In this document: positions 36,890 through 56,500 of the stretch, in pieces
Layout: each line of letters opens with the position of its first letter
Position numbering within the stretch: position 1 is the first letter of the stretch
Sequence record: PZ154897.1
Direction: 5' to 3' (one strand)
Length of the DNA stretch: 64,000 nt
Source: a phage
The notes under the pieces: model-generated
Told to the model about the DNA's origin: nothing
Databases searched by the model: none
What the model saw: only the letters and a program-made list of their open reading frames with translations
Program-made: the position numbers and the translations under genes

Positions 36890-36919
36890 ATAATATCACA
36901 ACTCTACCGTAAAGTAAAC
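36890..36919 (-). promoter_or_regulatory. early promoter (GTTTAC...TATTAT) with 7-bp inverted repeat spanning -10
   Basis: Minus-strand GTTTAC 36914-36919; IR ggtagag/ctctacc 36881-36908. Confidence 0.6.
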
Positions 36920-49014: not shown

Positions 49015-49044
49015 ATAGTATCACACTACTACCCTGTTGTAAAC
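49015..49044 (-). promoter_or_regulatory. early promoter (GTTTAC...TACTAT) with imperfect inverted repeat
   Basis: Minus-strand GTTTAC 49039-49044, -10 49015-49020. Confidence 0.55.
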
Positions 49045-49424
49045 TACTTTTTGAAAGTTTTTCGCAAAAGTTCAATGATTTCATCTACATTGTTTTCGTC
49101 TACAATGCAGTGAATTTTTGTTACGCCAGAAACCTTGTCTTCTATTTCATCTTCTTCAGAAGTCGGTTCTTTATACTCGCGGAAACAATGAAATTCGTCT
49201 TCGCAAATTTCTAAAAGTCTATCTTTGAGGTAAAAATGCTTTCCATTTGCGCATTCAATGTGTTTTACTGCTTTATATCCATTAGCGACGGAAACTTCTT
49301 TAACTTCAAACCATCCGCCATTATCTCGAATAGCTTTAACTATTGATGAATTAGAACGTGGGCTATAATTAATAAATGTATCAATAAGTCTTGGAACAAG
49401 TTCATATTTTCTACCAGTATACAT
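49044..49424 (-). CDS. hypothetical protein (frd.3 position)
   Basis: 126-aa ORF. Confidence 0.45.
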   Translation of the reverse strand: MYTGRKYELVPRLIDTFINYSPRSNSSIVKAIRDNGGWFEVKEVSVANGYKAVKHIECANGKHFYLKDRLLEICEDEFHCFREYKEPTSEEDEIEDKVSGVTKIHCIVDENNVDEIIELLRKTFKK

Positions 49425-49444
49425 TGCGTTTTCCTCATTTTAAT

Positions 49445-49462
49445 AGGGGCTTGATAGCCCCT
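49445..49462 (-). terminator. hairpin downstream of gene 32 region
   Basis: AGGGGC-TTGATA-GCCCCT stem-loop. Confidence 0.5.
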
Positions 49463-49468
49463 TGATAA

Positions 49469-50647
49469 TTACTGCTCAATAAATCCTGTGTAAAATTCTA
49501 CATCTTCAGCATCCATACCGTCACAATATTCATTAACCATAAATTGTTTAAGACGATTTAAAGGACCTTCAATAACAACTGAAACATTGCAATTAGGATC
49601 ATTTAGTGCGCTTGTAATACGGAGTTCAGGATAACGATTACGAATAATTTCTTCAATATATTCAAAATCAACAACATCAATATCAATTTTAGCCATGTTA
49701 TTTTCCTCTTTAATCATCATCAGCAGTATTGCCGATAGTTGTATAGTACCACAGTATGCTTTGGGGTCCGTGTCATCAGCACTAGATGAACTGCCAGAGC
49801 TTGAGCTCATAAAATCATCTTCAGTTTTTGTTTTGAAGTCATCAACATTGAATGCATCCAAATCATCAGCAACTTTATCAGCTTTCTTAGCGGCAGTTGC
49901 TGCGGCACCACCCATAGCAGCAGTTCCCATAACTTGACTGAACTTAGTGCTCAGTTCTTCAAACGATTTGAATTTATCTTTAGAAGTCATTTCAGAAAGG
50001 TCAACCATTTGTTCGAACAGTTCTTTCTGGAAAGATTCATCATCAATGTTTGGAATCGCAGATTGATTCAGGAATTTAGATTCGTCGTAGTTACTAAAAC
50101 CAGAAACTTGTTTAACTTTCAGTACAAAGTTAGCACCTTCCCACGGACAAGTTACATCAACAGGAGTTTCACCCATTTCAACATCAACTGCAATCATTGC
50201 ATTGATTTTATCCCAGATTTTCTTACCGAAACGATATTTAAATACTTTACCTTCATTTTCTGGAGCAGCTGGGTCTTTTACAACAAGAATGTTAGCCCAG
50301 TAAGAAGTTTTACGTTTAACAAGACCGTACTCTTTATTGTCAGTGTTATACAAATCATTTTTACTGATGTACTGACATACTGGACAAGAATCGTAATCAC
50401 CGTAGGTAGATGAGCATGTTTCGATATACCATTTACCATTTTTCTTGAAACCGTGATTTACAAGAAGTGCGAATGGTGCTTGTTCATCATTTTTAGACGG
50501 AAGAAAACGAATTACTGCTTGACCGTTACCCGCATTATCGAGTTTCAGTTTCCACTCGCCTTTATCTTCAGAAGAAAAACCACCTTTATTTCCAGCCAGT
50601 TTAGCCATTTGTGCAGCGAGTTCAGCAGTAGATTTACGTTTAAACAT
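49469..50647 (-). CDS. 32: gp32 single-stranded DNA-binding protein; ORF as sequenced extends to 392 codons by read-through into a downstream 75-codon ORF
   Basis: N-terminal about 294 aa match T4 gp32 by recall; no stop after acidic tail; internal ATG with RBS at 49696. Confidence 0.85.
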
Positions 50648-50698: not shown

Positions 50699-51331
50699 TC
50701 ATAGCTGGCATAATTCGCAATACTCTGGGTCTTCGAGAGGTATCCAACCTGAGTTGAAATACTTTACCATCGATTTAGCAGTTGTATCAGTTATATTTAT
50801 ATTACCTTTAACTCTTCGCCATCCAGGAGTTTTACCGTACAGATTAGAGGATAATAATAACACATAATTCTCGTAAGCAATATGAGATAATTTCCAAGAC
50901 TCTATATTAGCTCGTGATGTTTTCCAAGGTCTAAAATCGTCACGGTTCATATAATTAGCCAATCTCATATGCTCTCTAACTTCCGGGTCTTTGGCTGGAT
51001 GAGTTTCACCACTCACACCAAATCCGCCGCCAGCATATACCAGATTAAAATAGTCTGGATTATCTCTGGCATTTACTTCAAGTTGGTATTTTCGCTCTGC
51101 TTCAATAACATCCAAATCATCATCAATTTGAATTATTTTAACGCTCGGTTTTTGAAGCATTACCGCATTTAAAAATCTTTTTTGTTTGCACGAGCTCCAG
51201 TATTCCTTTCCGGAAGAGTCATATATTATTCCATTCTCAAATGAGCAATTTAATTTACTGCCGATATAGTAGTACGGCGGAGTCTTATTTTTGACACGGT
51301 CTTCAAATGTAAACCAATATACTATATTCAT
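50699..51331 (-). CDS. putative GIY-YIG homing endonuclease (SegG-like, 32.1 position)
   Basis: 210-aa ORF between 32 and 59; NIVYWFTF...YYYIGSK resembles GIY-YIG. Confidence 0.55.
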   Translation of the reverse strand: MNIVYWFTFEDRVKNKTPPYYYIGSKLNCSFENGIIYDSSGKEYWSSCKQKRFLNAVMLQKPSVKIIQIDDDLDVIEAERKYQLEVNARDNPDYFNLVYAGGGFGVSGETHPAKDPEVREHMRLANYMNRDDFRPWKTSRANIESWKLSHIAYENYVLLLSSNLYGKTPGWRRVKGNINITDTTAKSMVKYFNSGWIPLEDPEYCELCQL

Positions 51332-53494: not shown

Positions 53495-53556
53495 ATGAAC
53501 CTCGTTCAATTAGTGAGATTTCTATTATATACCATCCGAATCTTAAAGTAAACAAG

Positions 53557-53598: not shown

Positions 53599-56500
53599 AT
53601 GGCCGAGATTAAAAGAAAGTTCAGAGCAGAAGACGGTCTGGACGCAGGTGGCGATAAAATAATCAACGTAGCTTTAGCTGATCGTACCGTAGGAACTGAC
53701 GGTGTTAACGTTGATTACCTAATTCAAGAAAACACAGTTCAACAATACGATCCAACTCGTGGATATTTAAAAGATTTTGTAATCATTTATGATAACCGCT
53801 TTTGGGCTGCTATAAATGATATTCCAAAACCGGCAGGAACTTTTAATAGTGGACGCTGGAGAGCATTGCGTACTGATGCTAACTGGATTACAGTTTCATC
53901 GGGTTCATATCAATTAAAATCTGGTGAAGCTATTTCGGTTAACACTGCAGCCGGTAATGATATTACATTTACTTTACCATCTACCCCAATTGATGGTGAT
54001 ACTATCGTTCTCCAAGACATTGGAGGAAAACCTGGAGTTAACCAAGTTTTAATTGTAGCTCCAGTGCAAAGTATTGTAAACTTCAGAGGTCAGCAAGTAC
54101 GTTCAGTACTAATGACTCATCCAAAATCACAGTTGGTTTTAATTTTTAGTAATCGTCTGTGGCAAATGTATGTTGCTGATTATAGTAGAGAAGCTGTAGT
54201 TGTAACACCAGCGAATACTTATCAAGCGCAATCTAACGATTTTATCGTACGTAGATTTACTTCTGCTGCACCGATTAATATTAAACTTCCGAGATTTGCC
54301 AATCACGGCGATATTATTAATTTCGTCGATTTGGATAAATTAAACCCTCTTTATCATACAATTGTTACTACATACGATGAAACTACTTCAATACAAGAAG
54401 ATGGAACTCATTCTATTGAAGGACGTACATCTATTGATGGTTTCTTGATGTATGACGATAATGAAAAATTGTGGAGATTGTTTGACGGGGACAGTAAAGC
54501 ACGTTTACGTATTATAACAACTAATTCAAATATTCGTCCAAATGAAGAAGTTATGGTATTTGGTGCGAATAATGGAACAACTCAAACAATTGAGCTTCAG
54601 CTTCCAACTAATATTTCTGTTGGTGATACTGTTAAAATTTCCATGAATTACATGCGAAAAGGCCAAACAGTTAAAATCAAAGCTGCCGGTGAAGATAAAA
54701 TTGCTTCTTCAGTTCAATTGCTGCAATTCCCAAAACGTTCAGAATATCCGCCTGAAGCTGAATGGGTAACTGTTCAAGAATTAGTTTTTAACGGTGAAAC
54801 TAATTATGTTCCAGTTTTACAACTTGCTTATATAGAAGATTCTGACGGAAAATACTGGGTTGTACAACAAAACGTTCCAACTGTAGAAAGAGTTGATTCT
54901 TTAAATGATTCTACTAGAGCAAGATTAGGCGTGATTGCTTTAGCTACACAAGCGCAAGCTAATGTCGATTTAGAAAATTCTCCACAAAAAGAATTAGCAA
55001 TTACTCCAGAAACATTAGCTAACCGTACTGCTACAGAAACTCGTAGAGGTATCGCAAGAATAGCAACTACTGCTCAAGTGAATCAGAACACCACATTCTC
55101 TTTTGCTGATGATATTATCATCACTCCTAAAAAGCTGAATGAAAGAACTGCTACAGAAACTCGTAGAGGTGTTGCTGAAATTGCTACGCAACAGGAAACT
55201 AATGCAGGTACTGATGATACTACAATCATCACTCCTAAAAAGCTTCAAGCTCGACAAGGTTCTGAATCATTATCTGGTATTGTAACATTTGTATCTACTG
55301 CAGGAGCTACTCCAGCTTCTAGTCGTGAATTAAATGGTACAAACGTTTATAATAAAAACACTAATAATTTAGTTGTTTCGCCTAAAGCTCTGGATCAGTA
55401 TAAAGCTACTCCAACACAACAAGGTGCAGTAATTTTAGCAGTTGAAAGTGAAGTAATTGCTGGACAAAGCCAAGAAGGATGGGCAAATGCGGTTGTAACG
55501 CCAGAAACGTTACATAAAAAGACATCAACTGATGGAAGAATTGGTTTAATTGAAATTGCTACGCAAAGTGAAGTTAATACAGGAACTGATTATACTCGTG
55601 CAGTCACTCCTAAAACTTTAAATGACCGTATAGCAACTGAAAGTTTAAGTGGTATAGCTGAAATTGCTACACAAGTTGAATTCGACGCAGGCGTCGACGA
55701 TACTCGTATCTCTACACCATTAAAAATTAAAACTAGATTTAATAGTACTGATCGTACTTCTGTTGTTGCTCTATCTGGATTAGTTGAATCAGGAACTCTC
55801 TGGGACCATTATACCCTTAATATTCTTGAAGCAAATGAGACACAACGTGGTACACTTCGTGTAGCTACACAAGTTGAAGCTTCTGCAGGAACATTGGATA
55901 ATGTTTTGATAACTCCTAAAAAGCTTTTAGGTACTAAATCTACTGAAGCACAGGAAGGTGTTATTAAAGTTGCAACTCAGTCTGAAACTGTGACTGGAAC
56001 GTCAGCAAATACTGCTGTATCTCCAAAAAATTTAAAATGGATTGCGCAGAGTGAACCTACTTGGGCAGCTACTACTGCGATAAGAGGCTTTGTTAAAACT
56101 TCATCTGGTTCAATTACATTTGTTGGTAATGATACAGCTGGTTCTACGCAGGACTTAGAGTTATATGAGAAAAATAGCTATGCAGTATCACCATATGAAT
56201 TAAACCGTGTATTAGCAAATTATTTGCCATTAAAAGCAAAAGCCGCTGACACAAATTTATTGGATGGTCTAGATTCATCCCAGTTCATTCGTAGGGATAT
56301 TGCACAGACGGTTAATGGTTCACTAACCTTAACCCAACAAACGAATCTGAGTGCCCCTCTTGTATCATCTAGTACTGCTACGTTTGGCGGATCAGTTTCG
56401 GCAAACAGCACATTAACTATTTCTAATACTGGAACGGCAACTCGTCTGATATTTGAGAAAGGACCTCAAACTGGAACTAACCCAGCGCAGACGATGACTA

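Follow-up and report, generated by a model that had tools for sequence, protein, structure and literature searches.

The gene 32 protein (gp32) of T4-like phages is the textbook phage SSB, a protein that binds single-stranded DNA, and its acidic C-terminal domain is a hub that recruits replication, recombination and repair proteins. The helix that binds Dda has been mapped to residues 248-270 of T4 gp32; in the same study, residues 271-301 lacked electron density and the peptides tested for binding did not cover residues 281-301 (PMC11551737). The T4 mutant Δ32PR201, which carries a small deletion in the C-terminal domain, is viable and has a shifted partner specificity with unaffected autoregulation (PMC535899). 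Promoter-early stem-loop (PeSL) elements, with the consensus TTTACW-N17-TAYWAT in T4/PST, are known sites of insertions, deletions and exchanges and documented hot spots for indels (PMC4122927). Here, we describe a locus in which these elements meet. In a stretch of 64,000 nucleotides of phage DNA (PZ154897.1; the whole stretch is hereafter called the window), gene 32 has neither a stop codon nor a terminator of its own and runs in frame into the downstream gene frd.3. This gene 32::frd.3 fusion very probably reflects a real deletion at the gene 32-frd.3 junction, an allele that is inherited in a minority lineage of Tequatrovirus phages.

The fused open reading frame (ORF), taken from the ORF list, is located at 49469..50647 on the minus strand, begins with ATG and encodes 392 residues with a predicted mass of 43.9 kDa and a pI of 4.7. 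It is unbroken from codons 1-294 of gp32, up to ...ADDTD (49766..50647), through a read-through linker of 23 codons (codons 295-317, 49697..49765), delimited by alignment with the undeleted, long-form phages, and into a complete Frd3 of 75 codons plus stop (49469..49696) that ends in GFIEQ, all on the minus strand. The gp32-derived part was assigned with the Pfam family PF08804 and alignment A4: residues 40-240 match the entire profile (1-208/208) with an E-value of 9e-66 and 222 bits against a cutoff of 26.8. Residues 1-294 are 92-99% identical to T4- and N2-type gp32, the columns of the zinc ligands H65, C78, C88 and C91 do not vary in A4, and the cooperativity motif KRKST is found at the N-terminus (FKRKST at residues 2-7). 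Furthermore, the Dda-binding helix is unchanged in comparison with the published T4 residues 248-270 (PMC11551737) and the Ser/Asp-rich acidic segment (SSSSADDTD) is kept. Likewise, residues 318-392 match PF05798 (Phage_FRD3) from end to end (1-75/75; E-value 8e-32, 110 bits against a cutoff of 28.1), and Frd3 taken as a stand-alone ORF scores 114 bits against the same profile. Frd3 is acidic (pI 4.07, net charge -10) and folds into a compact beta-alpha-beta-beta-alpha-alpha domain of unassigned function, with a predicted local distance difference test (pLDDT) score of 92.9 when modeled alone. Its ribosome-binding region, AAAGAGGAAAATAAC (49697..49711, minus strand; read from the sequence), is intact, directly precedes the internal ATG at 49696..49694 (minus strand) and is kept in 17/17 loci compared. 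Thus, frd.3 has retained a ribosome-binding site (RBS) and a start codon, but it does not qualify as a separate gene, since gene 32 and frd.3 form one uninterrupted ORF and the frd.3 promoter has lost its -35 box.

A sequence-only reading of the window had described a gp32 match through about residue 294 followed by an in-frame run into a 75-codon ORF, and the ORF sequence is exactly as it was quoted there. The suggestion that the downstream ORF is an independent gene brought in frame agrees with the full-length Frd3 match and with the RBS and ATG of this ORF. The two remaining frames past the junction do stop, as had been said, at a TAA (...NTADDD) and a TGA (...RQYC). The ORF list, Pfam and alignment A1 also agree on an SSB fusion of 392 residues that lacks part of the acidic tail, with LDDLLNDL gone. 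The statement that gene 32 lacks a stop needs to be modified: there is indeed no stop after the acidic tail, but it is not simply missing, since a whole 107-bp segment is absent in comparison with the long forms.

A megablast query of 601 bp around the junction matched 503 phage records, most of them in two pieces that span ~707 bp and a few of them colinearly. In alignment A1, which contains the window, the long-form phage N2 and the colinear phages, the window has a clean 107-bp gap relative to N2. We refer to this allele as Δ107. According to the alignment and the junction tables, the junction GGACC/CCAAAGC (the slash marks the breakpoint) lies between 49765 and 49764 on the minus strand; the window sequence across it (within 49700-49830) is GGACCCCAAAGC, and the missing segment is TGGATGACCTTTTGAATGACCTTTAATAG…GGGGACCCTAGAGGTCCCCTTTTTTT…CACAAAACGGTTTACAA. 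Lost with this segment are the last eight gp32 codons (LDDLLNDL), the TAA stop, the terminator hairpin, an AT-rich stretch, the -35 box TTTACA and one further A. The lost hairpin, GGGGACCCTAGAGGTCCCC with a run of seven T, scored as terminator-like in a scan of the long-form locus L001, and a terminator is annotated at the 32/frd.3 position in several GenBank records; the terminator scan of the window between 48900 and 50800 found no terminator-like sites.

The scan of L001 also identified the long-form intergenic promoter, TTTACA-17-TACTAT with an upstream TG, and the intergenic element of the long-form phages fits the PeSL consensus. Only TG-n-TACTAT and the RBS remain of this cassette in the window, where the stem-loop and the -35 box are absent. 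Promoter scans placed the surviving extended -10 element TGgTACTAT of the early (PeSL-type) frd.3 promoter at 49743..49751 (minus strand), now within coding sequence. The CGGACC of gene 32 itself (49765..49770, minus strand; read from the sequence) is located 16 nt upstream of TACTAT and may serve as a weak hybrid -35 box with 3/6 matches to TTGACA, a role that we rate low; it was not flagged by the promoter scan. The linker DNA corresponds to the promoter spacer, the -10 box and the 5' untranslated region (UTR) of frd.3 in the long-form phages, where it is noncoding. Since it is conserved equally in those phages, there is no sign of protein-level selection on the linker. Four matches to TTTACW-N17-TAYWAT were observed in the window, at 36890-36918, 49015-49043, 53524-53552 and 54052-54080, all on the minus strand, with 0.36 expected by chance; the one at 49015-49043 is situated right after frd.2. 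Just past the frd.3 stop there is a GC-rich hairpin without a T-run, GGGGCTATCAAGCCCC (49443-49465, minus strand), which is probably the first RNA structure met by gene 32 read-through transcripts in the Δ107 allele.

The same junction was found in other phages. A 54-nt query spanning the junction and a tblastn census independent of the spacer sequence returned the same fused set, namely phiC600P9 from China (MT630408 and MZ681930, two depositions), vB_Eco-B1.1 from Poland (ON871820), GEP001 from China (PV173775) and CrRp10 from France (MG775043, NC_054899). Each of these phages has a coding sequence of 1179 nt labeled "single stranded DNA-binding protein," and Δ107 is already deposited, uncommented, in a handful of GenBank genomes. 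The two depositions of phiC600P9 are both fused and differ at the junction codon 295, which is Pro in MT630408 (GGACCCCAAAG) and Leu in MZ681930 (GGACCTCAAAG, DTDLKAYC). The sequence-only reading had presented the read-through as an anomaly, with the reservation that relatives of the same architecture would turn it into a lineage feature, and the alignment to relatives, with that architecture in four phages, places it among the latter. The window represents none of these phages, and over 12 kb its identity to any record does not exceed 96%. In CrRp10, the junction is combined with an frd.3 allele and a right flank that diverge strongly (52 mismatches in 400 nt). The Δ107 junction is thus linked to two frd.3 alleles and to different flanks, and the allele has therefore persisted through recombination into other backgrounds. 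For CrRp10, a latent period of 17 min and a burst of 85 have been reported, with the fusion unmentioned (PMC7412075). Phages carrying Δ107 are viable and CrRp10 grows normally, which indirectly points to a fusion that may be a working SSB in vivo.

To place the lost tip in a broader context, we compared gp32 from RB69-like, Karam-, Winkler-, Acinetobacter, Proteus, Morganella and Providencia phages (57-88% identity). The pattern [DE]LD[DAE][LI]L[NAEK][DG][LMI] stands directly before the stop in 17/18 gp32s with a normal C-terminus, from several genera, with tip variants such as DLDDLLNDL, DLDDLLAGL, DLDELLNGL, DLDALLADM, GLDDLLKGL and SLDDLLNDI; the exception is the Providencia phage PSTCR6, with the variant tip ELEALLNG. 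The 30-40 residues ahead of the tip are hypervariable across genera. The last eight residues are thus conserved from coliphages to Acinetobacter and Proteus phages, and the comparison indicates that the tip is under purifying selection. Since the tip is conserved across genera, we consider the long form as ancestral. The tip is absent from the window protein, in which the sequence runs on as PKAYCG.... In the literature, we found no partner or function mapped to the last eight gp32 residues and no description of a gp32-Frd3 fusion.

The Δ107 allele belongs to a family. The junction and tblastn searches, followed by reading of the loci, revealed at least four distinct deletion alleles that start at the same nucleotide, GGACC/, after GACACGGACC, and the tip, the stop and the terminator stem are removed in all four classes. 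One class is Δ107, with the window and the four phages listed above and the fusion of 392 residues. Another is Δ106, found in TB004, Sfk20, SP21535, EO1 and 11B_SA_NWU, in which gp32 is not fused and has 310-311 residues: its ORF passes through what was the promoter spacer and 5' UTR in a different frame and ends at a TAA inside the frd.3 RBS, leaving Frd3 separate. Yet another class is represented by IME537 (L015, MT179807, 406-1614), which has an independent in-frame gp32-Frd3 fusion of 402 residues with the junction GGACC/CATTTTTTTTTTTCAC, also annotated as one protein. In ZN18 (L016, MN716856, 406-1311), a deletion of ~71 bp removes the terminator stem and the tip is replaced by LFQKIFS, giving a gp32 of 301 residues with the tail ...DTDLFQKIFS before the stop; this is the normal length and the change of tip is easily overlooked. 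The right endpoints of the IME537 and ZN18 deletions differ, which argues for independent events. Altogether, about 11 distinct deposited phages and the window carry deletion alleles, among about 500 records with the locus, and the carriers fall in at least five species recognized by the International Committee on Taxonomy of Viruses (ICTV). Gapped patterns gave 0 short forms in IMG/VR, a collection poor in close T4 relatives, versus only 3 long forms.

How did the deletion arise? The window differs from the long-form N2 by 1 mismatch in 400 nt of the left flank and 5 in 400 nt of the right flank, and its retained spacer, CCAAAGCATACTG, is identical to that of TB004 and N2 minus the first A. 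Given the near-N2 flanks and spacer, the most likely origin of Δ107 is an N2-type haplotype, on which it was formed in one step or through the loss of one A from a Δ106 allele like that of TB004. The left endpoint coincides with the end of GGACCT (L001 1732-1737), which is perfectly complementary to AGGTCC in the 3' arm of the terminator and agrees with GGGGACC in the 5' arm. Through the formation of an alternative hairpin or through slipped pairing, this PeSL element could be a deletion hot spot at the left endpoint. Such a hairpin-assisted mechanism is plausible from the sequence and accounts fairly well for deletions of the IME537 and ZN18 types. In Δ106 and Δ107, the right endpoint falls just after TTTACA. 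Furthermore, Δ106 has the same endpoints on three or more unrelated spacer haplotypes, which all occur in long forms too (EO1 = UViG1, TB004 = N2, Sfk20 ≈ IME537). A homologous crossover cannot move the spacer that abuts the junction, which suggests recurrent and precise deletion. That promoter spacing has acted as a filter, with CGGACC 17 nt from TG-n-TACTAT after Δ106 and 16 nt in the window, seems doubtful.

We also considered other sources of the deletion. Ectopic PeSL exchange does not account for the spacer haplotypes, as no related spacer is found at any of the four other TTTACW-N17-TAYWAT sites of the window. A large DNA hairpin that joins both Δ106 endpoints was rejected because the fold of L001 1715-1880 is robust only for the terminator stem (z = -1.45), so that what remains is the 6-nt complementarity of GGACCT and AGGTCC at the left endpoint. 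Cleavage by SegG found no support: SegG targets gene 32 and the window carries segG, but most fused phages have no segG upstream. T4 is said, in the title of one study, to escape CRISPR attack by minihomology recombination and repair. A direct repeat with 11/12 matches, TAGTGCTGATGA/TACTGCTGATGA, was observed at L001 1717-1728 and 1880-1891 (about 49782-49771 and 49726-49715 on the minus strand of the window), one copy in the "SADD" codons of gp32 and the other just upstream of the frd.3 RBS. This repeat is the reason why an alternative frame ends in ...TADD, and it could be due to chance (roughly p = 0.04) or to an old duplication.

On the fused template, a ribosome would read from gp32 residue 294 through 23 codons of former spacer and 5' UTR and into Frd3. 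The product would contain the complete B-domain, core and Dda-binding helix of gp32, followed by a flexible tether and the acidic, folded domain of Frd3. Since no terminator is left, transcription of gene 32 would be expected to continue into frd.3 and frd.2, and ribosomes could still start separately at the ATG at 49696, from the intact frd.3 RBS, and make some free 8.8-kDa Frd3. The autoregulation of gp32, which acts on the 5' leader, should be unaffected. In an AlphaFold model of the fusion, of low overall confidence, the topologies of the gp32 core and of Frd3 are kept, and residues 266-315 have pLDDT < 50 and look disordered. The fusion was modeled from a shallower alignment; a MAFFT block alignment of gp32 and Frd3 homologues misplaced short sequences. 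Two folded modules joined by a flexible tether would agree with this model. What the data show is the deletion, what it removed, its occurrence in independent isolates and the viability of carriers; that the fusion protein is produced, that transcription reads through, that a hairpin assisted the deletion and that the loss of the tip is tolerated are inferences.

Under two alternatives, the fusion protein would not exist or would not be the main product. If the fusion were an error of sequencing or assembly, the phage itself would have the long form or a TB004-like sequence (GGACCACCAAAG), in which latter case the fusion would result from a base dropped in the C-run, and gp32 would really end at a stop. 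Fused and unfused short forms do differ by a single A beside the C-run (CCACC versus CCCC), there is a strong GC hairpin within the deleted segment, and the exact protein of 392 residues has no match in a collection of 15 billion proteins or in the contig index. However, the same CCCC junction and 392-residue ORF are present in four other phages that were isolated and assembled independently, one of which, phiC600P9, was deposited twice and is fused both times, and with 0-1 nt of microhomology there is no repeat at the junction for an assembler to collapse. The identical junction in phiC600P9, vB_Eco-B1.1, GEP001 and CrRp10 speaks against an indel of the kind that the sequence-only reading had in mind, and an error of this type appears very improbable to us. 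The recoding alternative holds that tRNA-Pro slips into the -1 frame on C-CCC (GAC CCC AAA), yielding a gp32 of ~312 residues like the unfused short forms, with the fusion not being the main product. The four C's would permit perfect re-pairing in the P-site, and the -1 frame gives the same tail as five natural unfused alleles. Programmed -1 frameshift sites combine an in-register slippery heptamer with a downstream stimulator, but the zero frame at this site has no canonical X XXY YYZ heptamer, and the sequence downstream did not reveal a stimulatory structure. Moreover, the C-run is not conserved among the fused phages, since MZ681930 has CCTC at the junction (DTDLKAYC), and IME537 is fused via a completely different junction. 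We therefore give recoding hardly any chance of being the explanation.

A different question is whether the loss of the tip has been selected for, by evasion of a host defense that senses SSB or by raised expression of frd.3-frd-td, in which case the fusion could be a by-product or useful in itself, with the acidic Frd3 replacing the acidic tip or acting at the replisome. The tip and the terminator stem are missing in each of at least four structurally distinct deletions, the recurrence of the Δ106 endpoints on unrelated haplotypes points in the same direction, there are two independent in-frame fusions (392 and 402 residues), and the carriers are spread over at least five ICTV species. Phage SSBs, T4 gp32 included, trigger defenses such as DARNA (bioRxiv 10.64898/2026.02.22.705581), and the strongly acidic Frd3 adjoins gene 32 in several genera. 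Yet DARNA senses SSB-bound single-stranded DNA rather than the tail (bioRxiv 10.64898/2026.02.22.705581), and no defense is known to read the gp32 tip. The alleles are rare (~3% of the records with the locus) and their carriers show no pattern of hosts, a mutational hot spot in common explains their recurrence without selection, and since one in three random deletions is in frame, two fusions among four alleles represent no enrichment. Positive selection as the driving force is quite unlikely in our opinion. The broader proposal, that the tip has been lost repeatedly and independently by a precise, site-directed deletion and kept because this is advantageous under some condition, such as escape from an SSB-sensing defense, is doubtful; if it were correct, the two fusions would hint that Frd3, a conserved acidic protein whose gene is invariably adjacent to gene 32, acts with gp32 at the replisome.

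We favor the hypothesis that Δ107 is a heritable and tolerated deletion allele, but there are observations that weigh against it. Both the ~44-kDa fusion with its stability and the transcript that reads through are predictions, and the full-length model is of low confidence (mean pLDDT 61.7). The conservation of the tip across genera argues that it matters, and a neutral tolerance of its loss would be surprising. The allele is rare, with one cluster of 392 residues among 5.8 billion proteins, any deletion allele in ~3% of the GenBank records with the locus and no short forms in IMG/VR, and such rarity fits a mildly deleterious variant. Finally, microhomology at the Δ106 and Δ107 junctions is limited to 0-1 nt, and a hairpin or a direct repeat would account for their left endpoint but not for the right one.

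The gene order in this region of the window is 59-segG-32-frd.3-frd.2, as in a T4-like phage. The gene for the homing endonuclease SegG (50699..51331, minus strand) is located directly upstream of gene 32, with 209/210 residues identical to the T4 protein, and the Frd2 ORF, identified with Pfam (49044..49424), is located downstream of frd.3. In phiC600P9, vB_Eco-B1.1, GEP001 and CrRp10 there is no segG, and gene 59 is directly upstream of gene 32. Since segG is present only in the window among the Δ107 phages, the deletion allele resides in a different, mosaic background. Gene callers place the start of Frd3 inconsistently, giving proteins of 75, 82-84 or 96-99 residues, because no stop codon interrupts the frd.3 frame in its own 5' UTR and promoter, in the long forms as well. 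Two "metaclust" entries (P0002 and P0005; 528 and 440 residues) score high against gp32 and carry many unrelated Pfam domains; these look like artefactual or chimeric sequences.

Our findings draw attention to the dispensability of a conserved SSB tip, a recurrent breakpoint and an annotation pitfall. Viable natural phages without the tip exist in three forms, in which it is replaced by unrelated sequence, by a short tail or by a fused domain of 75 residues, and these provide a ready allelic series for studies of the function and partner of the tip. The shared breakpoint represents a small and tractable case of structure-directed deletion at a terminator-promoter cassette. Annotation pipelines name the chimera of 392 or 402 residues "single stranded DNA-binding protein" and drop Frd3 from the gene list, and several of the carriers, CrRp10, Sfk20 and TB004, are candidate therapeutic phages.

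How does the locus compare with systems already described? T4 gp32 (301 residues) has the cooperativity motif, the zinc-finger and OB core, the Dda helix and the Ser/Asp-rich segment in common with the window protein, which differs in that it lacks LDDLLNDL and has 98 additional residues, the 23-residue linker and Frd3. Both Δ32PR201 and the window allele alter the acidic C-terminal domain in viable phages, but the former is a laboratory mutant with an internal deletion, in which the tip, the stop and the terminator are retained and there is no fusion. The SSB of E. coli (...DDDIPF) and gp2.5 of phage T7 (with a C-terminal Phe) resemble gp32 in that a disordered acidic tail ends in a short conserved motif that recruits partners. 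The tip is essential in both of these proteins, whereas natural phages without the gp32 tip are viable. Among the closest relatives, TB004, Sfk20, SP21535, EO1 and 11B_SA_NWU have the left endpoint in common with the window and are likewise without tip, stop, terminator and -35 box, and TB004 also shares the N2-type spacer; since the Δ106 deletion in these phages is 106 bp rather than 107 bp, the frame of gp32 differs and Frd3 is unfused. IME537 and ZN18 share the GGACC/ endpoint and the loss of the tip and the terminator stem, and IME537 also has an in-frame fusion, but their deletions are shorter, with other right endpoints, and the whole TTTACA-N17-TACTAT promoter is kept. The long-form stem-loop followed by TTTACA-N17-TACTAT resembles the PeSL cassettes (Arbiol 2010; Comeau 2014, PMC4122927). 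In classical PeSL events, recombination takes place between two copies of the element and entire ORFs are moved, whereas one breakpoint is here located inside essential coding sequence. In comparison with all of these, the gene 32::frd.3 fusion is a rare natural allele of a very well-known gene, and not a new kind of system.

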